Positions 777 through 48,815 of a stretch of DNA of 64,000 nt are shown piece by piece. Source of the DNA: Ruditapes philippinarum (taxonomy: Eukaryota); assembly GCF_026571515.1 (NCBI RefSeq), contig NW_026857783.1:178878-242877 (forward strand). Direction: 5' to 3'. A program made the translations under genes and the position numbers. The notes below the pieces were generated by a model that ran no database searches, was not told the origin of the DNA, and worked only from the letters and a program-made list of their open reading frames with translations. Numbering within the stretch: the first letter of the stretch is position 1; every line of letters starts with the position of its first letter.

Positions 777-1452
777 GTACTTAATATTTACATTGATTTA
801 AATTTTTTTAGCTCCTCCTGAGCACAAAGAGCATACATGTACTTCAAGGTGAATTCTTGTAAAAACTGATATTCATAGTCTGTGTTTTGCATTTAGCATA
901 TTGTGTTGTCATCCTCAATTTCTTTAAACACATTTCCTTATCACATGGTAGATTTTTACTAAACTGCAGGAATGATCCTGAAGGGACAGTCCATGAAAAT
1001 CATATATTAAATGATTTCAGTTTGATAAATATGTAGGTCACAGTACCTGAAAATAGACTTTAAAACTGAAGTCTTTAAAGATCTTCAATTCAGAAACTAC
1101 ATTGCCATAAGCTTTGATACTCGCATGTAGCAATACCTTATGGTTTTATACAAAAGTAATATTAACCATGACTACAGGGTCAAATTTGTCCGCCCTTGGG
1201 GTCATTTAGCTTACATAGACTATAAATATTTGTGTATGAACTACACAGCTTTGTGATTAGATATTTGGCATTTAGCATTGTGTTAGTACAGACTTCTACA
1301 AAAGTCATTTTATTCATGGTCCTGGGGCCCATCATGTAATATAATAGATTTACGTTGAAGACCAAAAAAAGCATATTTTGAGATAAGTGCATTCAAAGAT
1401 AAATTGTAGAATTAAACGAAAGTCATGAGGTAATTCTTCGGTAAATTTTCAG

Positions 1453-1626
1453 GTTGAAAAAGCAGAAGCCATTTTGAAACAGATCAAGTCAGCCCTAGAT
1501 ACGAATGATGATAGTAAAATACCCAAACTGATGTCGGATTTCCATTCTACACTACCTCATGATAAGCTGCATCAAGCAGTGACACCAACTAAATACTGGT
1601 TGTCAAGGAAACTGGACCTCTGCCAG
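1453..1626 (+). CDS. PARP4: PARP4-like exon, PARP alpha-helical (regulatory) domain
   Basis: VEKAEAILKQIKSALDTNDDSKIPKLMSDFHSTLPHDKLHQAVTPTKYWLSRKLDLCQ resembles PARP1 ...LSNRFYTLIPHDFG...; acceptor ttttcag|GTT, donor CAG|gtaagt. Confidence 0.75.
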
Positions 1627-2184
1627 GTAAGTTTTCTACTAAAATTTCCATGAAAAAAAAAAAATAAAATAGATTTTTTTTTTACGATTATACCTTTACC
1701 TTTTTTAGAATGAGATAAAATTAACAAAAAAAAAAAAAAAATCACAACATGCTAATTAAATCTTACAACTTCAATAATTATGTAAAAAAATTACTTGCAC
1801 AACCTGATTTTAGGGTGCTTTCTTAGTGCAAACATGACTATTTGAAGACTACTCGAAGTAAAGGAAGAGTTATTTTTCTCAGTCTAGTATCGGCATCGCC
1901 ATCACACTTTAGTCAAGTTTTTGGGTGCAAGTTGGTATCTCCAAAATTACTAAAGGAAATGGGTTGAAACTTCACTCACTTGTTCTTTGTGATTATCTTG
2001 CTTGATGGACACAGGTTCTTTAGTTCTTAGGTATCTTTTTATCAGAGTTATGCCCCTTTTCTTACTGTCAAGCACTGAGAATAGTCAATTTGGCTGTCTT
2101 ACGGACAGTTCTTATTCATATTGATTCTTGAAAACATGAACTTATTAATAGTCAGAAGTAAGACAAACTTATTTGTTTTTGCAG

Positions 2185-2345
2185 TTGGTAAGAGATATGA
2201 TATCTGTTAGTGAGGCCACAAACTTTGCCATGAGAACTAGCACAGTAGCTAAATATAGGTCTCTAAGATGTGGGATAGATTGTTTGAGCCCTTCTAGTAC
2301 AGAATACCACACAGTTAAACAGCTGGTCAGCGATTCAATAGTTGG
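2185..2345 (+). CDS. PARP4: PARP4-like exon, end of helical domain
   Basis: LVRDMISVSEATNFAMRTSTVAKYRSLRCGIDCLSPSSTEYHTVKQLVSDSIVG; acceptor tttttgcag|, donor GG|gtaagc; ends phase 2 and joins next exon in frame. Confidence 0.75.
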
Positions 2346-2489
2346 GTAAGCCTATTAAATTTGAATGATTCCCCAACATAAAAAAAACAACTTTTCTTTA
2401 AAATGCACAATATGTTTCAGAAATCCATATCTTTTTTAATTCTTTTTATAAATGTCATACTGTGGTTCATGAGTTTAATAACATTTTAA

Positions 2490-2708
2490 TAATGGATTAA
2501 GGGCATGTTAGATGTTTAACAACTGAACAAAGTAGCGCTGAATGTGCAGTATATGTGTCGTAAAGGTAGCAAAATGTAAACAAAGCAGTATTTTGACTTG
2601 CATACAAATTACTAACTCATTATATTTATATCCATTGCCAATAGAGCTAAAGGAGAAAAAGACAGTTCATGTATATGATAAATTAGTATTAATTTGGAAC
2701 CTGATACC

Positions 2709-2741
<33 letters not shown>

Positions 2742-2750
2742 TGATAGCAT
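2490..2750 (+). repeat. poly(A)-tailed SINE-like element (family B)
   Basis: catgttagatg..agtagcgctgaatgt..aatgtaaacaaagcagtattttgacttgcatacaaa.. plus A22 tail at 2708-2730; copies at 5425-5580 and 12312-12490. Confidence 0.55.
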
Positions 2751-3029
2751 TTCTTTGGCATAATGCACCTTTAAGCAACTTTTCTCCATTTCATGTTAAT
2801 TTCTAGTAAAAACATATGTATTGTAATTGATATAATATTACATAATGGTTTTAATGAAGTCAGAGGCACTTTTATTCCATGGAAAAGATATGCTCATTGA
2901 TATCAACAAGGTAGGATTGTTATGATAAGAATTTTATGCATACAACATTATCAGATGTGACATCATGTCACATGGATTTTGAATATTCACACATTTCTTT
3001 ATTTATCTGTTACTCACCAGAGATGAGCA

Positions 3030-3200
3030 TATTATACAGCCAAGGAAAGCATGACACCAAACGTTAAGTCACTTGCTCTTCATCTCTGTTGGTTCGAATC
3101 CCATCAGGGATTTGGATGTTTTAAGTGAGGAAAATACTTAGCTAGCTTGTTCTTCTCAGGTACCCACTGGTGTGTCAGATAATGGGCAAAGGAATACCAA
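3030..3200 (+). repeat. SINE-like element (family A copy)
   Basis: GGTTCGAATCCCATCAGGGATTTGGATG B-box-like motif; no A box or cloverleaf, so not a tRNA gene. Confidence 0.5.
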
Positions 3201-3204
3201 AGGT

Positions 3205-4385
3205 CTTTTTATGCCCCCACAATGTGGGAGCATATAGCGTTGCACTTGTCCGTCCGTCCGTCAGTCCGTCCGCACTCACAGGACAGTAATTATGTGGCTA
3301 GAGGGACAATAGGTAACTGTTCTTTCTCTTTGATGTCATTCATTCCGTAATGCTTTTATGTGGCTATTTTCTTTTGTGTGGCTAAAAAGAACAATAGAGA
3401 GAACAATAGAGTAGCCACATAATTACTGTCCTGTGAGAACTTCCGTCCGTACGTCCCGAAATCTTGTGAACGCAACTCCTCTTAAACCGGATGGCAGATT
3501 TTGCTTAAACAACATTAATGTGTATATGGTAGTAAAGGAAGGAATTTTTGCTGCGACCAAATTTAACAGAATTATGGCCCTTTGTTGATTTTTTCACTAT
3601 ATACTATGTAGAAATTTTGTGAACGCAACTCCTCTTAAACCGGATGGCAGATTTTGCTTAAACTTACAGGGATGAACAACCTTAATGTGTAGATGGTAGT
3701 AAAGGAAGGAATTTTTGCTGCGACCAAATTTAACAGAATTATGGCACTTTGTTGATTTTTTCACTATATACTATGTAGAAATTTTGTGAACGCAACTCCT
3801 CTTAAACCGGATGGCAGATTTTGCTTAAACTTACAGGGATGAACAACCTTAAGGTGTAGATGTTAGTAAAGGAAGGAATTTTTGCTGCGACCAAATTTAA
3901 CAGAATTATGGCCCTTTGTTGATTTTTTCACTAAATACTATGTAGAAATTTTGTGAATGCAACTCCTCTTAAACCGGATGGCAGATTTTGCTTAAACTTC
4001 CAGGGATGAACAACCTTAATGTGTAGATGGTAGTAAAGGAAGGAATTTTTGCTGCGACCAAATTTAACAGAATTATGGCCCTTTGTTGATTTTTTCACTA
4101 TATACTATGTAGAAATTTTGTGAATGCAACTCCTCTTAAACCGGATGGCAGATAATGCTTAAACTGGCAGGGATGAACAACCTTAATGTGTAGATGGTAG
4201 TAAAGGAAGGAATTTTTGCTGCGACCAAATTTAACAGAATTATGGCCCTTTGTTGATTTTTAGTTTTTCAACTTGTGGCACATGTAGTCCAAAAAATATT
4301 TGACCTAGAGTCATAAGATTGACAGAACAGTGGCGTGTGGGGGCATCCGTGTCCTATGGACACATTTCTAGTTCCATCAGTAAAG
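3205..4385 (+). mobile_element. non-autonomous TIR element (ATGCCCCCAC...GTGGGGGCAT) with (GTCC)n head, internal hairpin and 4.5 copies of a 180-bp satellite (3440-4260)
   Basis: termini atgcccccacaatgtggg (3211) and gtgggggcatccgtg (4340); inverted repeat cacaggacagtaattatgtggctag / tagccacataattactgtcctgtgag; near-identical element at 47440-48110. Confidence 0.6.
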
Positions 4386-4540
4386 CTAGAAAGTTGCCAT
4401 ATGATAATACAGTGTTGGTGTGACATACAAACAAAAATTAATTGAATGATAAAAGAGTTGATGATCTTGAATAAAATGAGTGACAAAAACATGACTAAAT
4501 ATTACTGTGCCATTTATATACATGTATATATATATTACAG

Positions 4541-4678
4541 AGATTGTCAGATCAATATTGTTGACATCTTTGCTGTAAATCGCCCGGTGGAGAGCAGCAA
4601 CTTCCTGTGGCATATCTCCAATAAACAACTTCTCTTCCACGCATCTAAAGCTAACAATATAGTTGGAATCTTATCCAG
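4541..4678 (+). CDS. PARP4: PARP catalytic domain exon (NAD-binding His block)
   Basis: DCQINIVDIFAVNRPVESSNFLWHISNKQLLFHASKANNIVGILSRGL parallels PARP1 YDLEVIDIF...[21 protein letters not shown] (H conserved, G to A); acceptor tatattacag|, donor CAG|gtaatt. Confidence 0.85.
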
Positions 4679-5424
4679 GTAATTACACAGATTGGTGAGC
4701 TATTTAAACTTTTTTATGGTAGATAATTATATAAAACATTACTGCGTGTTTGCAGTTAGACAATCAAACATGTATGTTACCTATATATACAGCTAATGCA
4801 AATTTGAGATTCTATTTCTACTTTTATCAAAGAAGGCAATAAATTTCCATATTATAAATTCTAAAGACTTGAATTGTTATTATATGGACATGTATAAACG
4901 GTTGTTTGCATTATAACCGTTATCAAGTGGCTTGTGTTAATAGGAGCTTACAGTCAGTTTTACTGGGCTATAGGAGAGGATCAGTGGTCAAGTGGTTATA
5001 CAGGTTCATTCCTTAACTACTCCACTAACAGTTCAAAATTTTAATGGTCTTTCATCTAAAAATAGCAAGGTCTCATGTATCTGTACTCTACACTTGGCAT
5101 GTAAAATAAATAGCTTATGGAACAGGTCAAATACTGCATCATTCATACAGTCCGCTAGAAATAAGAAAATATGCAGCATTGCAGATTGGGCAGCTGCACA
5201 CAACAGTTAGTAAAGTGAAGCAAAAAAAGAAAAATATTGGGCCATTTTACCTATATAATCTTGACCACAAATATACAAGCTGTAAGAATATTTTTCTTTA
5301 TTCTTCCTCAGGTTTCAAAGATTATTGCATCAGATTTAATGGCACATAATGCCTCAGAAACAAATAAAAAATTCTTTAAAAAGTTTGAGCATGTGCTTTA
5401 TAAAGTCTAAATAATGTCTTTAGA

Positions 5425-5580
5425 CCATGTTAGATGCTAAACACCAAAAGAGAGTAGTACTGAATGTGAAATTATGTTCATAAAAGTAGAAAAATGTAAA
5501 CAAAGCAGTAATTTGACTTCCATACAAAATACTAAATCACTATGACACTGTACTTGCCAAAAAAAAAAATGAACCAAAAG
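5425..5580 (+). repeat. SINE-like family B copy
   Basis: shares catgttagatgct..agtagtactgaatgtga..aatgtaaacaaagcagtaatttgacttccatacaaaatactaaatcac with 2490-2750; A11 tail. Confidence 0.5.
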
Positions 5581-5794
5581 ATGGTTCAGATTAGTATCCA
5601 GTGAGTAAATTTTCAGAAACTATAATTATCAGGTCACTAGAAATATAAAGCTTCTGAGAAAAAAAGATTGAAGAATGTATTGGGCATAATGGACAGGGAT
5701 AGGAATAGTCTATTGTACGGGCATCTTGCTTAAATTATAAAGAACCTTTTTGCATTGTTTATTATGAATTCTAAGTAATTAAGTTATATTTCAG

Positions 5795-5893
5795 AGGGTT
5801 GTTAATGCCGAGGGTTGTAGTGGAGGATCATGGAGGTACAAGGTCTGATCCTGGCATGTTGGGATCTGGTATTTACTTTGCAAGTGCTGCAAG
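5795..5893 (+). CDS. PARP4: PARP catalytic domain exon (GIYFA tyrosine block)
   Basis: LLMPRVVVEDHGGTRSDPGMLGSGIYFASAAR parallels PARP1 ...GYMFGKGIYFADM; acceptor tatttcag|, donor AAG|gtaatg; phase consistent. Confidence 0.85.
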
Positions 5894-6149
5894 GTAATGC
5901 TTTTGTAATTTTTGGTTTCAAATTGATATTTTAGATGATATTTTTCACATTTTGCTGTAAATTTATGTTTGAGTTTTTGCTAAATATTTTAATAAATTGT
6001 TATTTTTAATGGCTATTTTTTGTGTATATTAACAAAAATAATGTCTGGTCCAGAACTTTGTTGCTTTTTGCTGAATTTTAACTGTATGGAAGAATTGTAT
6101 TCCATCCTTAGACAATATGGCATGCTCAAGTTCCTCTTATATAGCAAGA

Positions 6150-6290
6150 GTATGCATAAATAGAGGATATTGAATGAGTGTATGTTTAATAACGAATTTA
6201 TTGAACAAGTTGAATAAAATTATTTTATGTGAGCCCCTGGAAAGCATAATAATATTTTCAACCAGTTCAATATATTCAGGTATGAACTTA
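6150..6290. repeat. palindromic MITE-like family C
   Basis: atattgaatgagtgtatgtttaataacgaatttattgaacaagttgaataaaatta; homologous to 19690-19850 and to hairpin element 60825-60970. Confidence 0.4.
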
Positions 6291-6650
6291 CACAAATTTA
6301 ATTATCACATACTGAAAATATATAGACCATTTGAAGCGAAAAAGTGCCAATTTTCATTGACACGCCTATAGTATAATGCTAATATTTAGCATGTCTTAAT
6401 GCTCTGTTTATATAACACAAATGACGTCACTTCAAAATATAATCACGGCTGTGCAATACCATGTTTACAAAGTTGTAAAAATGGCACTGGTATGTGATAA
6501 ACTAAATTTTGAATGTAGGTCATTATTACATTATACTTGTATTTTATTTCTAAGGAAAAGCATTAAACCTTTACAAAGGTCCATTTCTTTCTTCTTTTCA
6601 CAATAATTTTTTTGAAATGGTAGATTTGATTTTCTTTCTGCAATTTTTAG

Positions 6651-6834
6651 TACAAGTGTTGGTTATTCTCTGGCAAGTAAAACAAAAGGGTCAAGGTTTA
6701 TGCTGGTCAGTGAGGTTGCCTTGGGCAGGTGTATGGATACGTATCAGAAAGATTTGACCTTGACCTCTGCTCCAGAAGGTTATAACAGTGTACATGGTGT
6801 GAAATCTTCTCCAGGAGAACAATCTGCATTTAAG
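6651..6834 (+). CDS. PARP4: PARP catalytic domain exon
   Basis: STSVGYSLASKTKGSRFMLVSEVALGRCMDTYQKDLTLTSAPEGYNSVHGVKSSPGEQSAFK parallels PARP1 VSKSANYC...LLGEVALGNMYEL...KGKHSVKGLGKTTPDPSA; acceptor caatttttag|, donor AAG|gtacta. Confidence 0.85.
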
Positions 6835-7074
6835 GTACTATAATATATGATGTGTTTAGTTATCTAGGCTGTTGCACATCAATTTAATTTTTAGCTGTCT
6901 TTGATTTGAATCTGGAAATGTTCACTTACAGTTTAAGGGATTTTAATTTGAAAATATTATAGAAACCAATAGTGACCTTATGATGGCTGGACAAGCTCAT
7001 TTTTAGAAATTCAATAGTTTTAGGGTTAATAGTTACCCTTGAAGCTGGAGTGTCAGTCAATTTAATATTTTTGC

Positions 7075-7372
7075 ATTCGTCTCAGTGAGATATTATCCAT
7101 ATCTAACCAAATACTTGTTTAATAATCATTCCACTGACATATATAATTCATATCTAATCAAAAACTTGTTTTATAACAGGATTCTGATATTCCTCCAAGT
7201 GAGATATAATTCATATCTAATCAAAACTTGTTTTATAACAGGATTCTGTAATTTCTCTAAGTGAGATATAATTCATATCTAATCAAATCAAACACTCGTT
7301 TTATTACAGGATTTTGATATTCTTCCTAGTGAGATATTAGTGATATCTAATCAAAAACTAATTTTATTACAG
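7075..7372 (+). repeat. ~65-bp tandem repeat (4-5 units) duplicating the 3' splice-site region of exon 7373
   Basis: repeated gtgagatataattcatatctaatcaaaacttgttttataacag gattctgatattcctccaa; the last unit provides the real acceptor ttttattacag|GATGATGAG. Confidence 0.7.
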
Positions 7373-7526
7373 GATGATGAGTATGTGATATACAGCCCGA
7401 ATCAACAAAGACTGAAATATCTAGTAGAGTTTACTACAAAAACTGATGAAGTGAAGAGGACTTTTGAAGAGCTTGTAACCCTGGATGAAATGATGATATC
7501 TGATGATGAAGATTCTGATGTTATAA
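7373..7526 (+). CDS. PARP4: PARP catalytic domain exon (catalytic Glu block)
   Basis: DDEYVIYSPNQQRLKYLVEFTTKTDEV... parallels PARP1 [22 protein letters not shown]; acceptor ttttattacag|, donor A|gtatgt; ends phase 1. Confidence 0.85.
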
Positions 7527-8048
7527 GTATGTATATCATGAATAATTGTGAATTTGGTGCATGTATAATACAAATAAAAAGCAATGGGAATGGTTTTCCT
7601 TCAATGTATCTAAATATTCAAGGTTATATTGAAACATTCTGTTTGTTTCCACAGGAAAATATTTGAATGTTTTAAATTACAGAAACTGTGCAATTGTTGA
7701 ATTCTACACCAGCATCTTGTTACCTTCCTCCTGAAATTTAAGTTATAAATGTTATAAACTCATGAAAAAATAACCATGAAATATCAGACTGTAACCTGCA
7801 TTCTGTGTAAGATTCAGTTCTTTAAGGCCAGTGTAGTATTTCTCATTACATTTGTATGATATGTTTTGCTGTTTTTCACATCAGGAACCTTATAAGATTT
7901 AAATAATACTGAGGGCATACTAGAACAGGTGCAGAGTCAAAGGTCAAGGCTAGTCTCATCTCCGAGGCAGATTCAGATGTTAACCTTTTATAATTATGTG
8001 CATGTGTTTATTTATTGCAAAAATAACATTTTGTCATTGTCTTATTAG

Positions 8049-8179
8049 GTTTGAAAGATGTCAAGGACATTACAGACCCTATGTCAAAGGTCAAGGCCGG
8101 TCTTGTCTCCAAGGACGATGCACCGGTTAACCTTAAATCTGTACATGTTCGTGCTAAACTGATGGATTTGGCATCTGAG
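8049..8179 (+). CDS. PARP4: VIT (vault protein inter-alpha-trypsin) domain exon 1
   Basis: SLKDVKDITDPMSKVKAGLVSKDDAPVNLKSVHVRAKLMDLASE; acceptor cttattag|, donor GAG|gtaaat; phase 1 to 0. Confidence 0.8.
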
Positions 8180-8500
8180 GTAAATTATGTACATCTCTAC
8201 TGAGATGTCAGGGCAGAGAGAATTTTTGTGTGTTCAGGGTGGTTTTAGATAAAATACATGTAATTAATTGTAGGGTGGTTGTTAGTTAAACTGCCAATAT
8301 ATCCTCATTAATGATTTGAAACAACTTTTAAGAATGAATTTATTAGATTCAATGTGATAACTATATTTTCTTGAAAAAAAACATGTTTTAGTCATAAGAC
8401 ACTTATTAATAAGTTCAAAATTGATGTAGCTATGAAGACTTAAATGATATGCTCCTTTTTTCATTGTAAATTTGGGCTGACAGTTGATGTTGGAAATATT

Positions 8501-9235
8501 TATACCCCCGCACAACAAAGTTGTAAGGGGGTATACTGGAATCAGCTTGTCTGTCCGACCGTCCAGCTGTCTGGCCGTATGGCGTCCGTCGTTTTTTTCT
8601 TGTCCGCCCAATAACTTAAGAATCCTTTGACCCACAGTCTTCATATTTGGCATGGAAGTTAGTCATAATCAGTAGATGACCCCTATTGATTTTGAGGTCA
8701 CTGGGTCAAAGGTCAAGGTCACAGGGGCCTTGACTTCAAAAAGCTTGTCCGCCCAAAAACTTAAGGTTCCTTTGACCCACAGTCTTCATATTTGGCATGG
8801 AGGTTAGTCGTGATTAGTAGATGACCCCTATTGATTTTGAGGTCACCAGGTCAAAGGTCAAGGTCACAGGGGCCTTGACTTCAAAAAGCTTGTCCGCCCA
8901 AAAACTTAAGGTTCCTATGACCCACAGTCTTCATATTTGGCATGGAGGTTAGTCATGATTAGTAAATGATCCGTATTGATTTTGAGGTCACTGGGTCAAA
9001 GGTCAAGGTCACAGGGACCTTGTCAAAATAAAGCTTTTCCCCAATGCCTGTCCAGAGTGTATTGATTTTGACATTTTCACATTTGAAGCATGTAGAATAC
9101 ATAACTTAGCAATGCACTGGCTTAGTCACCTCAGATTTGGCAGGGTGGTTGTCCTTGAGTTCTAAATGGCCACTGTTGATTCTGACAAAGTGGTATGCGG
9201 GGGTATTCACGCCATGATAGTGGCAGTTCTAGTTT
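8501..9235 (+). mobile_element. TIR element (TATACCCCCG...CGGGGGTATT) carrying a 139-bp satellite (~3.5 units)
   Basis: 5' tatacccccgcacaacaaagttgtaagggggtatactggaatcagcttgtctgtccg; 3' ggtatgcgggggtattcacgccatgatagtggcagttctagttt; same family as 39347-41095. Confidence 0.6.
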
Positions 9236-9568
9236 ATGATAAAATATAAATCTGGCTAAAATATAAAAAAAGACTGTGCCACTGTTTTTCTAAACTGATT
9301 GCTACATTTGAATTATAATAGATATTGACAGACTTTTCCTTGGGCCATGTGAGTTATTTATCGTTTCTGCGAAGTGAATTATTAAATTAAAAGGAATTAT
9401 TGCACAATGAAAACTTATTTTGACTTTCACCTGTGCACTCACTATCTACCCTGCTTTATGAAGGAATGAAATGAGGCAGTGAAAAAATTCAAGAGCTTTA
9501 GAAAAGAGTGAAGTATATCATCAGATGAATCACAAGCAAAGTGTGCTAATGATAATCTTTTATTTTAG

Positions 9569-9793
9569 GTGGTTGTGTTGCAAGAATATGAAAACAACAG
9601 TAAGAACCCTCTAGAAGCAAAGTATGTATTCCCACTAGGAGATCTAGCTGCTGTTTGTGGGTTTGAAGCATTTATCAATGGAAAACATATCATTGGGGAA
9701 GTGAAGGAAAAAGAGCAAGCCCATAAAGAATATAAGAAGGCAATTAGTGAAGGGCATGGTGCTTATCTTATGGACCAAGATGAGGAAACTCCT
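9569..9793 (+). CDS. PARP4: VIT domain exon 2
   Basis: VVVLQEYENNSKNPLEAKYVFPLGDLAAVCGFEAFINGKHIIGEVKEKEQAHKEYKKAISEGHGAYLMDQDEETP; acceptor tattttag|, donor CCT|gtaagt; 75 codons phase 0. Confidence 0.85.
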
Positions 9794-10140
9794 GTAAGTA
9801 CAGTGAAACTGTATAAATGGTATAAAATATGATATTTGACCTGTATAAATGGTATATATAAATAAGATATGATATTGAAACCTGTATAAGTAGTATATTA
9901 AAATGGTATAATTTAGATATGATATTGGACCTTTATAAATGGTATGATCTTAGACCTGTATAGATAGTGTGTAAGTGTATAAATGTTATATCAGAATAAT
10001 GATATTTGACTTGTATAAATGGCATAATATTAGATATGATATTGGACCTGTATAAATGGTATGAAATGACATAATATTATGATATTGGACCATGAATTAA
10101 TGGTATAAGATAAGATATGATATATGACCTGTATAAATGG
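9794..10140 (+). repeat. ~60-bp tandem repeat (5 units) beginning at the 5' splice site of exon 9569-9793
   Basis: units tgatatttgacctgtataaatggtataaaatat...; first unit overlaps donor CCT|gtaagtacagtgaaactgtataaatggtat. Confidence 0.65.
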
Positions 10141-10876
10141 TTTAAAATTAGGTCTAATTTCAACATGATTAAAATTGGTGTATCAATTTGAATTAAATTT
10201 CAGTTTTGGACTTTTGGACAAGATGAATATGTCAGTAATTGTCAGTCAATACTACATTGTATTGATTTGTTTTAAAGTTAAATAATTTTCATGAGAGCTG
10301 GATATTCCCATCTGTACAAGAAAAGCATTGTCTGGTCCTTTTTCTTGCAAATTACAGTCATGTTAATTTAAGTTCAAATAGAATTAATCATATTAATATT
10401 TCCAGTTAAGCTGAGTTTACAATTTCATTCTTAATGGCAGAATAATGTCATTCAAAGCATGTGACTCATTCAACAATAGCTTTGTATAGCAGTGTCATGT
10501 AGACATATAGATATCTCTCTTATTCACTTTTAGTTTGAATTGAGTCTTTGATGAATGTATCACTGTATTGAATAAGAGTGTGACTTAAAATAGTGTTGGA
10601 ACATGCACAACACTAAATACTGTATTCCGGTATATACTGGAAAAGGTGCTTGAATGATTAAATTTTAAAATCTTTTGCCATTTCACCTGCCAAAATGCAT
10701 TTTGGAAAGTTTAATTCATCTCTTCCTACCAATTTATATAAGAACTTGAATGATAAATATAAGAATTGTTAAAAAAGAAAAAAAAAAGATTATTTTTCTA
10801 CTTTGTGATCATGATTTCTGCAAGTGTCTAACACTGTAGTGAGTTAAATCTATTGATTATCACTTCTTATTACCAG

Positions 10877-11038
10877 GATGTGTTTACAGTCAGCGTGGGC
10901 AACCTACCACCTGGGGCAACCGTGCTCATCAAGATCACATATGTGGCAGAGTTACAGGTGGAAGGGGAAATGATCAGCTTTAGGTTGCCCGGAAGTGTGG
11001 CTCCTTGGAAGAAAGATTCATTGAAGGAAACTACACAG
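10877..11038 (+). CDS. PARP4: VIT domain exon 3
   Basis: DVFTVSVGNLPPGATVLIKITYVAELQVEGEMISFRLPGSVAPWKKDSLKETTQ; acceptor ttattaccag|, donor CAG|gtatga. Confidence 0.85.
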
Positions 11039-11094
11039 GTATGATTTCTATCCTGTAGTTGGTGTTTTGACATTTTTCCATACTGAAGTTGTAT

Positions 11095-11240
11095 AATATA
11101 AGAAATATACTAGTCCTGATATGACTATGCACTGTCCTGCTGATTAGACTGTTCACTTCCCTGCTGACTGGTCTTTGCACTACCCTGCTGACTGGTCTTT
11201 GCACTGCCCTGCTGACTGGACTTTGCACTGCCTTGTACCA
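11095..11240 (+). repeat. 24-bp tandem repeat x5 (CTGCTGACTGGTCTTTGCACTRCC)
   Basis: ctgtcctgctgattagactgttcacttccctgctgactggtctttgcactaccctgctgactggtctttgcactgccctgctgactggactttgcactgcc, 57 bp after donor 11039. Confidence 0.7.
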
Positions 11241-11924
11241 ATTGATGAAGGTTGTGGTATAACTTGTGAGCAAATTTAAGAGGTTTTCTTTATCAAAACT
11301 GCTGAAACTTGGGCAGGTACCTGTAATAAGTCTGGTCAGACCATAAAGACTTTATGCTGGTGGTACAGCAAGCATGATAATTTTTTTGCTAAATAACGGT
11401 TTTTGACTTAACATGTTTTGAGTGCATGGCTGTGTGAAGCTTTGTATGGGTTGCTTGGTTCTGTTCTTATAGTGAAGGCCAGATGTCATTAGATAACTTA
11501 TATGTTAAAGAAGCTCAACTTAGGTTGAAAAGTCTAAGAACATTATATTTTAAACTGTTACATAATTTAACTGGTGCACTTTATATGGAAAAATATGCAA
11601 AAATTAATAAAAAAAATTACACTCTGTATTGAAAATGAAAATCAATTTTTCAGTGCAATTTTAAGCCCGCTTTGAGTTAAAAGCACTTTTAAATGCTTTT
11701 CATCTTTAGTCATTTTCATTTGCACAATAAAAATGATTATTCTGCTAAAATAGAGTGATCAATGATATGAAATTTTGCACACAAGTTAGTGTTGTATACC
11801 TTCAACAGTTGGTACACAAATCGTGATAAAGTATTTCCAGTCCCTCCATGTCAAAAAAACTTCTGAATCAGTAGAGTTGCTTTAAAAGGTTCATATGGAG
11901 AATTTCTTTTCTTTCTTGTTCCAG

Positions 11925-12038
11925 CATGAGACAGAAACCATAGAGGTTAAACAAGGGGAGACAAGTCTACAGGTTTCTGTAGAGATGCCCTTTGACATAA
12001 GGTCGATTGAATGTCCTTCACAAAAGATAAAGGTCAAG
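11925..12038 (+). CDS. PARP4: VIT domain C-terminal exon
   Basis: HETETIEVKQGETSLQVSVEMPFDIRSIECPSQKIKVK; acceptor tcttgttccag|, donor AAG|gtgagt; 38 codons. Confidence 0.7.
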
Positions 12039-12311
12039 GTGAGTTATCAATAGAAATTCAACACTCAAGGAAGACATATATTTGGAAGAATTTATTTAGA
12101 GTCTGAAGTAAAATTTAACTATGTTGCTTTATTAAAGTTATGAAGCATTTTCAGGTATTGTTTTTGTTTAAAAGAGATGTTGTTGATTGTTTGATTATGG
12201 ATAGACTTGGTTCTTTTATACAAGTAATTTGTTTCTTGATAAATGCCTCTGAAACAAAAAAATTGTACTTTTTTTAGATAGGGCAAACATAGTTTTATAA
12301 CATTTAATAAT

Positions 12312-26869: not shown

Positions 26870-27050
26870 TTTTATATAGCTGTTTACATTTCACTTTACT
26901 ATTACACTTTACTTTAATGATATGCATTTAATTACTATTACACTTTACTTTAATGATATGCATTTAATTACTATTACACTTTACTTTAATGATATGCATT
27001 TAATTACTATTACACTTTACTTTAATGATATGCATTTAATTAAAAAGAAA
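26870..27050 (+). repeat. 35-bp tandem repeat x~5
   Basis: tattacactttactttaatgatatgcatttaattac repeated head-to-tail. Confidence 0.75.
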
Positions 27051-39346: not shown

Positions 39347-41095
39347 TTATACCTCCCAACAACGAAATTGTAAGGGGTGTATACTGGAATCAGCTTGTCT
39401 GTCCGTCCGTCAATCTGGCCATCCATTGGTTTTGGCTTGTACGCCCATTAACTTAAGATTCCTTTGACCAACAGCCTGCATAATTGACATGGAGGTTAGT
39501 CATGACTAGTAGATGACCCCTATTGATTTTGAGGTCACTAGGTCAAAGGTCAATGTTACCGGGACCTTGACTAAGAAAAGCTTGTCCGCCCAATAACTTA
39601 ATAAAGCTTTGACCCACAGTCTTTATATTTGCCATGGAGGTTAGTCATGATTAGTAGATGACCCCTATTGATTTTTAGGGCACTGGGTCAAAGGTCAAGG
39701 TCAAATGGACTTTGACTTCAAAAAATTTGTCCGCCCAATAACTTAAGAAACCTTTGACCCACAGTCTTCATATTTGGCATGGAGGTTAGTCATGATTAGT
39801 AGATGACCCCTATTGATTTTGAGGTCACTTGGTCAAAAGTCAAAGTCACAGGGGCCTTTACTATAAAAGCTTGTCCGCCAAATAACTTAAGTTTCCTTTA
39901 ACCACAGTCTTCATATTGGCCATGGAGGTTAGTCATGATTAGTAGATGACCCCTTTTGATTTTGAGGTCATTGGGTCAAAGGTCAAGGTCACAGAGACCT
40001 TGACATTAAAAAGTTTGTCCACCCAATAACTTAAGAAACCTTTGACCAACAGTCTTCATATTTGGCATGGAGGTTAGTCATGATTAGTAGATGACTCCTA
40101 TTGATTTTGAGGTCACTGGGTGAAAGGTTAAGGTCACAGAGGCCTTAACTATAAAAAGCTTGTCAGCCCAATAACTTAAGAAAGCTTTGACCCACAGTCT
40201 TCATATTTGGCAAGGAGGTTAGTCATGATTTGTAAATGACCCCTATAGATTTTGAAGTCACTAGGTCAAAGATCAATGTTACCCGAACCTTGACTAAGAA
40301 AAGCTTGTCCGCCCAATAACTTAAGAAAGCTTTGACCTAAAGTCTTTATATTTGCCATGCATGTTAGTCATGATAAATAGATGACCCCTATTGATTTTGA
40401 GGTCACTGGGTGAAAGGTTAAGGTCACAGGGGCCTTTACTATAAAAAGCTTGTCCGCCCAATAACTTAAGAAAGCTTTGACCTAAAGTCTTTATATTTGC
40501 CATGCATGTTAGTCATGATTAATAGATGACCTCTATAGATTTTGAGGTCACTGGGTCAAAGGTCAAGGTCACATGGACTTTGACTTCAAAAAGTTTGTCT
40601 GCCCAATAACTTAAGAAACCTTTGACCCACAGTCTTCATATTTGGCATGGAGGTTGATCATGACCATTAGGTGGCTCCTATTGATTTTTAGGTCACTGGG
40701 TCAAAGGTCAAGGTCACAGGGACCTTGATTAAAAAAGCTTTTCCCGTCAAATGCTTAAGAATGCTTTGGTCAACAGTCTTCATTTTTGTTATTGAGGTTG
40801 TTTATGACTAGTAGATGGCCTCTATTGATTTTTAGTTGACTGTGTCAAAGGTCAAGGTCACAGGGATTTTTACTAGAATAAGTTTGTCTTCTCAAATGCT
40901 TAAGAATGCCTGTCTGCAGTGTATTGATTTTGACATTCTCACATTTGAAGTATGTAGAATACATAACTTAGCAATGCACTGACTTAGTAACCACAGATTT
41001 GGCAGGGAGGTTGTCCTTGAGCTCTAAATGGCCACTGTTGATTCTGACAAAGAGGTATGCGGGGGTATTCACGCCATGACAGTGGTAGTTCTAGT
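39347..41095 (+). mobile_element. TIR element (TATACCTCCCAAC.../...GCGGGGGTATTCAC) with ~11 units of the 139-bp satellite; same family as 8501-9235
   Basis: 5' tatacctcccaacaacgaaattgtaaggggtgtatactggaatcagcttgtctgtccgtccgtc; 3' aagaggtatgcgggggtattcacgccatgacagtggtagttctagttt; ends 66 bp before acceptor of exon 41161. Confidence 0.65.
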
Positions 41096-41160: not shown

Positions 41161-42444
41161 AAAAAACCAGCAAGGAGAGCAATGAAGTCACATTTCAAAG
41201 CTCCTGAATCATCAAGTATTAGTTCACAAGCAGAAAAAGCAGAAACTGGCCTCCCTTCTCATCTTCATTTGAGTAATTGTTCCATGGCACCACAGTTGCA
41301 TCAGCTAATGGCACCACAATTGCAGCAAATGGCACCACAATTGCAGCCGCAAATGGCACCACAATTTCAGCAGCACATAGCACCACAGGTGCATCAACAA
41401 ATGGCACCACAATTGCAACAGCCACAACAACAGCTAGATATGCCACAACCTAATGCAAGAACTGATAAATTTATGTCTAGGTCTAAGCCTCCTAAATTTA
41501 TGTCTAGGTCTAAGCCTCTTGAAACTTATTCTGCATTGGAAAGGTCTGATGAATCATTGATGCATCAGATGGATAAAATTCCAACAGTGCATAATTATTT
41601 TTCAACAAGTTCTCCTTTTTCTCCTGCACCATTGAGTGCACCACCACCACCCCCACCTCCTCCAGGGGATACCCCAAGACCCACACCACAACTAGGGGTT
41701 GCTATTATTCCTTCATCTTTTCAAGTAGCATCTAGTTATCAAGCTCAGATACCAAGTTTTGGTTTTGGTGCAACAACGGGTGCATCACCACAACCCCCAC
41801 CTTCATCAAATAATGCGACTATACCACCCCCATGTCCTCCAATGCTTGCCCACAGATTCCAACCATCGAGAGCTCCAAGCTATTTATCTTTCGAAGTAGA
41901 GCCTAGATATGCAGCTAAAGCACCAAGTTTTGCTTTTAGTGCAACAACGGGTGCATCTCCACCACCACCACCTCCTTCAAAGGAAGCTCACAGACCACCA
42001 CCTCCACCAGGGGGTGCCCCCAGACCAACACCACCACCACCTCCAGGGGGTGCTCCCAGACCACCACCACCTCCAGGGGGTGCTCCCAGACCAGCACCAC
42101 CACCACCTCCAAGGGATGCTCCCAGACCTCCAGCTTCTCCAAGGGGTGCTCCTAGCCCTTCATCTTCTCTAGTAACATCTAGACATCCAGCTCCAGATCC
42201 AAGTTTTTCTTTTGGTGCAACAACTGGTGGATCTTTGGAAATGCTAAAAAGTTGTCCCAATATTAGCCCTATTAAGAGGATGATTGCAATGTCATTATCT
42301 AAATCTGCTGTTGATGATAATGATATGGAGTTTACCAAAGCCTCTAAGCAGGAAAGCAAAGAAATACCTGAGAAGAAAAGCATTGAAGCTCATGTTAGAA
42401 GAAATTATGGGGGAAGGAGGGTAGATATGCGTGAACTTCAAGAG
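41161..42444 (+). CDS. 1284-nt low-complexity exon: Q/P-rich MAPQLQQ repeats, FG-type PSFGFGATTGASP repeats, polyproline PPPPGGAPRP repeats
   Basis: long ORF in frame from acceptor ttttttttgcatacag| (41159-41160) to donor GAG|gtttgt (42445); 428 codons; repeat structure explains the overlapping antisense ORFs. Confidence 0.7.
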
Positions 42445-47439: not shown

Positions 47440-48110
47440 ATGTGGGAGCATATAGCGTTGCACTTGTCCGTTAGTCCGTCCGTCCGTCAGTTTGTCCAGC
47501 CGTACGTCCCGAAATCTTGTGAACGCAACTCCTCTTAAACCAGATGGCAGATTTTCCTTAAACTTACAGGGATGAACAACCTTAATGTGTAGATGGTAGT
47601 AAAGGAAGGAATTTTCGCTGCGACCAAATTTAACAGAATTATGGCCCTTTGTTGATTTTTTCACTAGATACTATGTAGAAATTTTTTGAACGCAACTCCT
47701 CTTAAACCGGATGGCAGATTTTGCTTAAACTTACAGGGATGAACAACCTTCAGGTGTAGATGGTAGTAAAGGAAGGAATTTTCGCTGCGACCAAATTTTA
47801 CAGAATTATGGCCCTTTGTTGATTTTTTCACTATATACTATGTAGAAATTTTGTGAACGCAACTCCTCTTAAACCGGATGGCAGATTTTGCTGAAACTTA
47901 CAGGGATGAACAACCTTCAGGTGTAGATGGTAGTAAAGGAAGGAATTTTGCTGCGACCAAATTTAACAGAATTATGGCCCTTTGTTGATTTTTAGCTTTC
48001 AACTTGTGGCACATGTAGTCCAAAAAATATTTGACCTAGAGTCATAAGATTGACAGAACAGTGGCGTGTGAGGGCATCCGTGTCCTATGGACACATTTCT
48101 AGTCTTTAAA
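47440..48110 (+). mobile_element. second copy of the ATGCCCCCAC...GTGAGGGCAT element with 3 units of the 180-bp satellite
   Basis: near-identical to 3205-4385 (ttattatgcccccacaatgtgggagcatatagcgttgcacttgtccg ... cagtggcgtgtgagggcatccgtgtcctatggacacatttctag). Confidence 0.65.
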
Positions 48111-48224
48111 TGTTTCTGTAGTCCTAAACTCACTTAATTTGTTAAATTGATTTAACTGCTTTGAATTTTAAAAAAAGGTCAGTATTAAAGTACAAAAATT
48201 AAGCAACCAAAAGTATATAGCGTG

Positions 48225-48815
48225 GTCAGACTGCACAGATGTTCAGGCTAGCCTGGTCAGACTGCATAGATGTTCAGAGCTAACTTGGTCAGACTGCACA
48301 GATGTTCAGGCTAGCCTGGTCAGACTGCACAGTTGTTCAGGCTAGCCTGGTCAGACTACACAGTTGTTCAGGCTAGCGTGGTCAGACTACACAGATGTTC
48401 AGGCTAGCCTGGTCAGACTGCACAGATGTTCAGGCTAGCCAGGTCAGACTGCATAGATGTTCAGGCAAGCCTGGTCAGACTGCATAGATGTTCAGGCTAC
48501 CCTGGTCAGACTGCATAGATGTTCAGACTAGCCTGGTCAGACTGCATAGATGTTCAGGCTACCCTGGTCAGACTGTGCATTTGTTTAGTCTAGCCTGATC
48601 AGACTGCACATATGTTCAGACTAGCCTGGTCAGACTTCACAGTTGTTCAGGCTAGCCTGTTCATACTGCACAGATGTTCAGGCTACCCTGGTCAGACTGT
48701 GCAGATGACCAGGCTAGCCTGATAAGACTGCACAGATGTTCAATCTAGCCTGGTCAGACTGCAGAGATGTTCAGGCTAACCTGGTCAAACTGCACAGATT
48801 TTCAGGCTAGCCTTG
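48225..48815 (+). repeat. 31-32-bp minisatellite, ~19 units, derived from MITE family M core
   Basis: unit cctggtcagactgcacagatgttcaggctag is ~24/31 identical to the MITE segment cctgatcagactgcgcggatgcgcaggctgg. Confidence 0.8.

Follow-up and report, generated by a model that had tools for sequence, protein, structure and literature searches.

This locus raises the question of how a splice acceptor is chosen when an intron ends in several tandem copies of what looks like one and the same acceptor, and whether the additional copies do anything for the gene that carries them. The window, that is, the whole stretch of Ruditapes philippinarum DNA that was analysed, is 64,000 nt long, and the intron belongs to a gene on the + strand at about 1450-12040. 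At least 10 exons were recognised in this gene, and a 10-exon model that includes the acceptor at 7373 gave, when the exons were joined at AG/GT boundaries (here and below a slash within a motif marks the splice boundary), a 514-aa reading frame without stops. Pfam assigns to the predicted product a PARP catalytic domain (PF00644, E=8e-36) and, after it, a VIT domain (PF08487, E=1e-38). Its best solved relatives in the PDB are human PARP4 chains (E=5e-48), the alignment being gapless across the 6834/7373 junction, and its best named protein match comes from the bivalve Solemya velum. Because PARP and VIT domains occur together and the top human PARP4 matches run gapless through the junction, the host gene is, as judged from its sequence, a bivalve orthologue of PARP4 (vault PARP). 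The part of the gene under study is organised as follows.

6651 to 6834, + strand: upstream exon of the PARP catalytic domain, ending in …GVKSSPGEQSAFK (peptide …SAFK), from the stop-free model; donor AAG/GTACTA at 6834/6835
6835 to 7372, + strand: intron in phase 0, 538 nt long, whose last 307 nt are a tandem array
7373 to 7526, + strand: genuine exon of 154 nt, beginning with DDEYVIYSPNQQRLKYLVEF… (DDEYVIY…), gapless in alignment to human PARP4; donor TAA/GTATGT

The array adjoins the genuine acceptor, whose AG lies at 7371-7372, so that the exon begins at 7373. The preliminary description of this region had assigned the acceptor of the catalytic exon to the last repeat unit, an assignment that the position of the AG, the stop-free frame and the gapless alignment to human PARP4 confirmed. 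The Glu codon of DDEYVIY, a motif which bears the catalytic Glu of PARPs, is GAG at 7379-7381 and lies within this exon. Regarding the other end of the intron, the donor at 6834/6835 (AAG/GTACTA) is weak, being complementary to U1 at only 5 of 9 positions, and its score falls below those of three of the four intronic GTGAGA look-alikes listed below. The nine modelled introns of the gene measure 522-2195 nt.

To delimit the array, three kinds of repeat analysis were combined. TRF reported a repeat at 7141-7375 with a period of 62, 3.7 copies, 83% matches and a score of 313. A direct-repeat search found five copies from 7067 onwards at spacings of 51, 63, 62 and 68, and MAFFT also extended the array to five units from about 7066, so that two further degenerate copies carry it 5′ beyond the TRF range, to 7066. 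With the five units in register and copy-versus-copy E-values of 1e-8 to 1e-48 in an internal blastn comparison, the tandem duplication of an acceptor-bearing unit that had been described before is upheld; the array is real and far beyond chance. The measured period of 62-68 bp replaces the value of about 65 bp given earlier for the unit. On the 3′ side the array ends at 7375, which is 3 nt (GAT) inside exon 7373-7526. Its units are listed below.

7066 to 7116, + strand: U0, the outermost, truncated unit, 51 nt; donor-like TCA/GTGAGATAT (GT at 7085, donor score 3.8) and CTAAC, not followed by an acceptor AG
7117 to 7179, + strand: U1, degenerate; donor-like site lost (CTGACATAT), 3′ half intact and ending in the first decoy acceptor, ttttataacag/, with AG at 7178-7179
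7180 to 7241, + strand: U2, full cassette; 19-nt pseudo-exon GATTCTGATATTCCTCCAA, donor-like GTGAGATAT at 7199, CTAAT, second decoy AG at 7240-7241
7242 to 7309, + strand: U3, full cassette, 68 nt; 6-nt ATCAAA micro-duplication, donor-like GTGAGATAT at 7261, third decoy AG at 7308-7309
7310 to 7372, + strand: U4, full cassette, 63 nt; donor-like site at 7329, its 3′ end being the genuine branch/pyrimidine/AG module

The sequence …TTTTAT(A or T)ACAG/GAT is present four times, namely at the decoys starting at 7180, 7242 and 7310 and at the genuine 7373, which sets the number of decoy acceptors at three and not at the four or five previously counted. GTGAGATAT also occurs four times, starting at 7085, 7199, 7261 and 7329, and AAGTGAGA was found in two units only. 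A complete succession of acceptor, 19 nt and donor-like site exists in U2, U3 and U4 only. The 19-nt spacing reported by the preliminary description is correct in all three of these cassettes, and its picture of the repeat unit fits them; it does not fit U0, which has no acceptor, or U1, which has no donor-like site (there is no AG between U0 and U1, and U1 is also without the GT). The 39-mer quoted as the content of each unit, ttttataacag/GATTCTGATATTCCTCCAA/gtgagatat, was found once when up to 3 mismatches were allowed, the other two cassettes having diverged from it.

Pairwise identities over the units range from 76 to 90%. U0 is 76-83% and U4 81-85% identical to the other units, U3 and U2 share 90%, and the part of U1 at 7141-7179 is 97% identical to U2. 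The central units are the most alike and the edge units U0 and U4 the most diverged, a pattern that is usual for an array turning over by unequal exchange. Similarity past 7375 was not significant, and the array end was therefore set at this position: global alignments of U2, U3 and U4 with the first 62 nt of the exon gave p=0.66, 0.17 and 0.005 (the last being 0.02 against window controls, in a shifted register), which is unconvincing after multiple testing. The last 3 nt of the repeat being exonic, the segment that was duplicated must have reached across the junction. The idea that the unit is the whole exon in collapsed form was rejected as well, since the comparison of the pseudo-exon GATTCTGATATT…/GTGAGAT with the exon 3′ end GATTCTGATGTTATAA/GTATGT gave a local score of 19, a value that 31% of the shuffled sequences and 28% of the other pieces of the window also reached. 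Structured RNAs, snoRNAs and miRNAs were looked for in the units on both strands. Fold z-scores were between −1.7 and +0.8, the sole Rfam match was SNORD52 with E=0.88, well under the gathering score, and a 6-bp stem AGATAT…ATATCT in the unit is too weak to count.

The look-alike splice sites were then scored. Using a leave-one-out weight matrix derived from the gene's own ten acceptors, which ranks sites only roughly, the decoy acceptors obtained 3.2 (7180), 2.9 (7242) and 5.7 (7310), compared with 1.2 for the genuine 7373 and a span of −3.5 to 8.6 for the real sites. Using a generic metazoan donor matrix with approximate frequencies, which too gives only a rough ranking, the donor look-alikes obtained 7.6 (7199), 6.0 (7261) and 5.6 (7329), compared with 4.0 for the real donor upstream (AAG/GTACTA) and 4.7 for that of the next exon. 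The branch-like motif CTAAT, which is CTAAC in U0, is located 22-28 nt 5′ of the AG of each unit and 23 nt from the genuine site, and 22-28 nt is a normal branch-point distance. By these measures the decoys look like complete and competitive 3′ splice-site modules that score no worse than true sites. Since the decoy scores match or beat those of the true sites, exclusive use of 7373 is not guaranteed, and the same scores make it plausible that the decoys would be used at a low level, mostly giving products with early stops.

In the introns of the gene, the array excluded, a GT with a score of 5.6 or more turns up once in about 450 nt, and about 13% of 62-nt units would thus contain one by chance. 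The four donor-like copies descend from one motif and are not independent events, and nothing requires selection to account for the cassette. In addition, the pseudo-exons have a purine fraction of 0.32-0.37 and no GAA or GAG, compared with a purine fraction of 0.60 and 7.1 GAR per 100 nt in exon 7373-7526, which in its GAR density shares the top position among the modelled exons with exon 9569-9793.

The coding consequences of using the upstream sites were predicted from the exon model and are listed one by one.

Acceptor 7310 alone, +63 nt: in frame and without a stop; would put DFDILPSEILVISNQKLILLQ ahead of DDEYVIY (+21 aa)
Acceptor 7242, +131 nt: out of frame, reaching a TAA after 9 codons
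Acceptor 7180, +193 nt: likewise out of frame, again with a TAA after 9 codons
One 19-nt micro-exon, +19 nt: out of frame, running into a stop after 7 codons
All three micro-exons, +57 nt: reading frame kept, no stop

Use of 7180 or 7242 would presumably lead to NMD. The expectation that inclusion of the 19-nt pieces disrupts the frame holds for a single micro-exon and fails for the three together. What had been overlooked is that acceptor 7310 alone yields an in-frame, stop-free extension; U4 is entirely open reading frame and in phase with exon 7373-7526.

Taken together, we regard the array as probably a neutral, lineage-specific intronic minisatellite that arose by repeated tandem duplication of the 3′ end of the intron; its lack of function, the mechanism of duplication and the reason why the last copy wins are what we infer, as set out here. 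A segment of about 62 bp at the end of the intron, which contained a branch-like CTAAT, a tract rich in pyrimidines, CAG and the exon's first 3 nt, would have been duplicated head-to-tail several times, presumably through replication slippage or unequal exchange. The entire 3′ splice-site module would have been copied in this way, which would leave each intact copy acceptor-like, and the donor look-alike GTGAGAT would have been present by chance in the founding unit and multiplied along with the segment. Under exon definition, enhancers within the exon reinforce an acceptor, as does a donor lying at a suitable distance beyond it; exons that are very short are recognised poorly, and introns of about 45 nt, with only about 20 nt between donor and branch, are too short for most animal spliceosomes. 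Splicing would stay with the exon-adjacent copy, the only one with a real, purine-rich exon of 154 nt and a real donor behind it. Behind each decoy lie 19 pyrimidine-rich nt, splicing there would call for introns of 43-49 nt, and use of the decoys is expected to amount to low-level noise.

The comparison with related clams bears on the age of the array. The closest relatives were two Logan contigs, L001 and L007, which come from the runs SRR32575150 and SRR32575148, and two homology searches and three exact look-ups gave nothing closer; a data paper assigns both runs to Meretrix clams (PMC12229300). The Meretrix exon matches the window exon at about 80% of nucleotides, as estimated by eye in the alignment, and the exon peptides are 61% identical, which marks Meretrix as a relative of the bivalve of the window, though not a close one. 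In both contigs an intron of 369 nt is present at the identical position, without the array. The window intron showed no significant homology to the Meretrix intron, the CAGGATTC motif of the latter included (p=0.13 and 0.75). The DDEY codons of the exon are identical in Meretrix and are therefore ancestral. Distant metagenome PARPs have no intron at this site, and F[K/S/E]-DDEYVIY is kept without insertion in all relatives compared, including Meretrix and human PARP4. The orthologous intron in L001 has a direct repeat of its own at 417-517, unrelated to the clam array described here (34 nt, 82% identity, spacing 67), which suggests independent repeat turnover in the same intron.

Tandem repeats are common around the array, making up 16% of the window in 20 arrays, and five of the nine modelled introns of the gene hold one. 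Within this gene, a minisatellite of ~40-bp units at 9803-10152 starts 10 nt past the donor of a VIT-domain exon (9793/9794); its units' CCTGTATAA recalls CCT/GTAAGT, but an origin as a copy of the exon-8 donor junction was rejected, the similarity not being significant (p=0.24). Elsewhere, a perfect 36-bp array of 4.1 copies at 26896-27042 must be very recent because of its 100% identity, a 31-bp unit is repeated 19 times at 48218-48813, and a cluster of coding-like 24-66-bp repeats occupies 41284-42169, where one consensus unit (CCACCACCACC…) suggests a Pro-rich stretch. A 145-bp array and a 167-bp array are each found at two places (8599-9022 and 39435-40888; 3508-4261 and 47511-47993, respectively), and the window contains several further arrays of 140-175 bp. 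The 145-bp and 167-bp arrays are thus dispersed and probably element-borne repeats as described for bivalves (PMC7492417).

The main alternative to neutrality is that the young repeat, having multiplied a 3′ splice-site module, now acts on PARP4, be it through the in-frame acceptor 7310 with its 21 additional residues near DDEYVIY or through titration of splicing factors, so that copy number would set the share of productive mRNA as in a VNTR "splicing rheostat"; we consider such a role decidedly unlikely. Its components can be weighed separately. Partial use of the acceptor at 7309/7310, which would add 21 residues (DFDILPSEILVISNQKLILLQ) directly before the DDEYVIY of PARP4 in an isoform that escapes NMD, is unlikely in our view, even though this acceptor scores highest of the four (5.7, compared with 1.2 for the genuine site), a CTAAT of its own lies 28 nt before it, and an open extension of 63 nt in frame is to be expected of an alternative acceptor in use. 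The alignments of PARP1 and PARP2 break off just ahead of the junction, which suggests, without showing it, that length varies there within the family. On the other hand, an insertion at this point occurs in no relative, Meretrix and human PARP4 included, the peptide is hydrophobic and repeat-derived, the extension is low in purine and GAR, and an open frame together with a length divisible by 3 is by our estimate roughly a 1-in-10 coincidence. The titration component holds that the cassettes are decoys which would engage U2AF/U2 and U1 non-productively and thereby cause intron retention or isoforms with premature termination codons, the copy number acting as a rheostat that tunes PARP4 output. 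We judge it to be highly unlikely. The acceptor and donor look-alikes are of good quality (2.9-5.7 and 5.6-7.6), within or above the range of real sites, and are accompanied by branch-like motifs, the real donor of the intron is weak (4.0), and splicing can be modulated by tandem-repeat length (PMC10078293). Human cells provide documented cases of decoy exons driving intron retention (PMC6097662, PMC7373989), but these are found mainly in introns >1 kb (PMC7373989), and the host intron has 538 nt. Moreover, with presence in the nearest available relative taken as our own proxy for selection, the orthologous intron of Meretrix was seen to lack the array, and the oldest-looking units, U0 and U1, have lost their sites, which argues against selection keeping the decoys.

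Two further explanations concern the path of splicing and the source of the repeat. The preliminary description had proposed that the intron might be removed stepwise via the upstream AGs, by recursive splicing or by chained splicing of cryptic 19-nt micro-exons. The repeated look-alikes of acceptors and donors are all that speaks for it, along with the in-frame result of including all three 19-nt pieces, and we give it hardly any credence. Recursive splicing juxtaposes acceptor and donor (AG/GT) and is a device of long introns (PMC8605326). Here GAT stands after each of the four AGs, the donor-like GT comes 19 nt further on, no AG/GT is juxtaposed, and the junction AAG/GATTCT regenerates no donor, in an intron of just 538 nt. 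The chained micro-exon route would leave introns of 43, 49 and 44 nt, compared with a minimum of 522 among the nine modelled ones, with the branch-like A only about 20 nt from the donor and with pyrimidine-rich pseudo-exons devoid of GAR. Likewise, a mobile element might have landed beside the exon, with the array as its internal repeat now supplying the acceptor of the exon. Satellite-like arrays carried by elements abound in bivalve genomes (PMC7492417), and two other arrays of the window each recur at two places, but neither the 62-bp unit nor the rest of the intron has a second copy within the 64 kb, the array has no inverted repeats around it, a single scan of viral contigs gave no match, and the repeat runs into the first codon of the exon, which makes this origin very improbable.

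If the array is neutral, as we favour, it matters little and is one more intronic minisatellite in a window of which tandem repeats make up a sixth. It would still be of modest value as a natural experiment in splice-site choice, with four near-equivalent branch/pyrimidine/AG modules placed 62-68 nt apart of which only the last stands before a real exon. If the upstream copies were used, alternative acceptors would have come from tandem duplication in a single step, and with them possibly unproductive isoforms or new segments of the protein. For annotators the locus is a warning that models of site strength may choose 7310 over 7373. As an intronic minisatellite that overlaps a splice site, the array is a feature of an ordinary kind. 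What makes it mildly interesting is that whole acceptor modules have been multiplied and that the nearest decoy is in frame.

Among known systems, the array is like the intronic minisatellites and VNTRs associated with splicing (PMC10078293, PMC4039745) in being head-to-tail, intronic and near a splice site, with a unit of tens of bp that could alter the choice of branch site or acceptor. It differs from them in that the clam unit holds a complete 3′ splice-site module, so that whole acceptors are multiplied instead of a binding motif or a spacer. Decoy exons (Parra et al., 2018, PMC6097662; PMC7373989) share with it intronic pieces that are flanked by an acceptor and a donor look-alike and are not meant for the mRNA; such exons as described are single and mostly in introns >1 kb, whereas here 19-nt pieces are repeated in an intron of 538 nt and the repeat is absent in Meretrix. 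Recursive splice sites or ratchet points (PMC8605326, PMC6110457) likewise bring an acceptor and a donor motif close together within an intron. There the motifs are juxtaposed as AG/GT in very long introns, in contrast to a distance of 19 nt, no regenerated donor and a short intron here.

The nearest parallel in the same gene family is found in Meretrix. Contig L007 has at 2239-2309 a tandem duplication of 32 bp, with 2.2 copies and 97% matches, which runs across the donor junction of the exon whose orthologue in the window is 8049-8179; its first copy reads ACTCATGGATCTAGCATCAGAG/GTAGGTATTA, and in the second, intronic copy, ATAGGTATTA, the GT has become AT. Both cases are short tandem duplications across a splice junction of PARP4 in which the copy next to the exon still serves as the functional site. 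They differ in that the window array concerns an acceptor and not a donor, has about five copies, is older (76-90% identity) and still contains three intact decoys. The Meretrix duplication represents a second, independent duplicated splice junction in PARP4, and such duplications evidently arise and persist in the PARP4 genes of bivalves.
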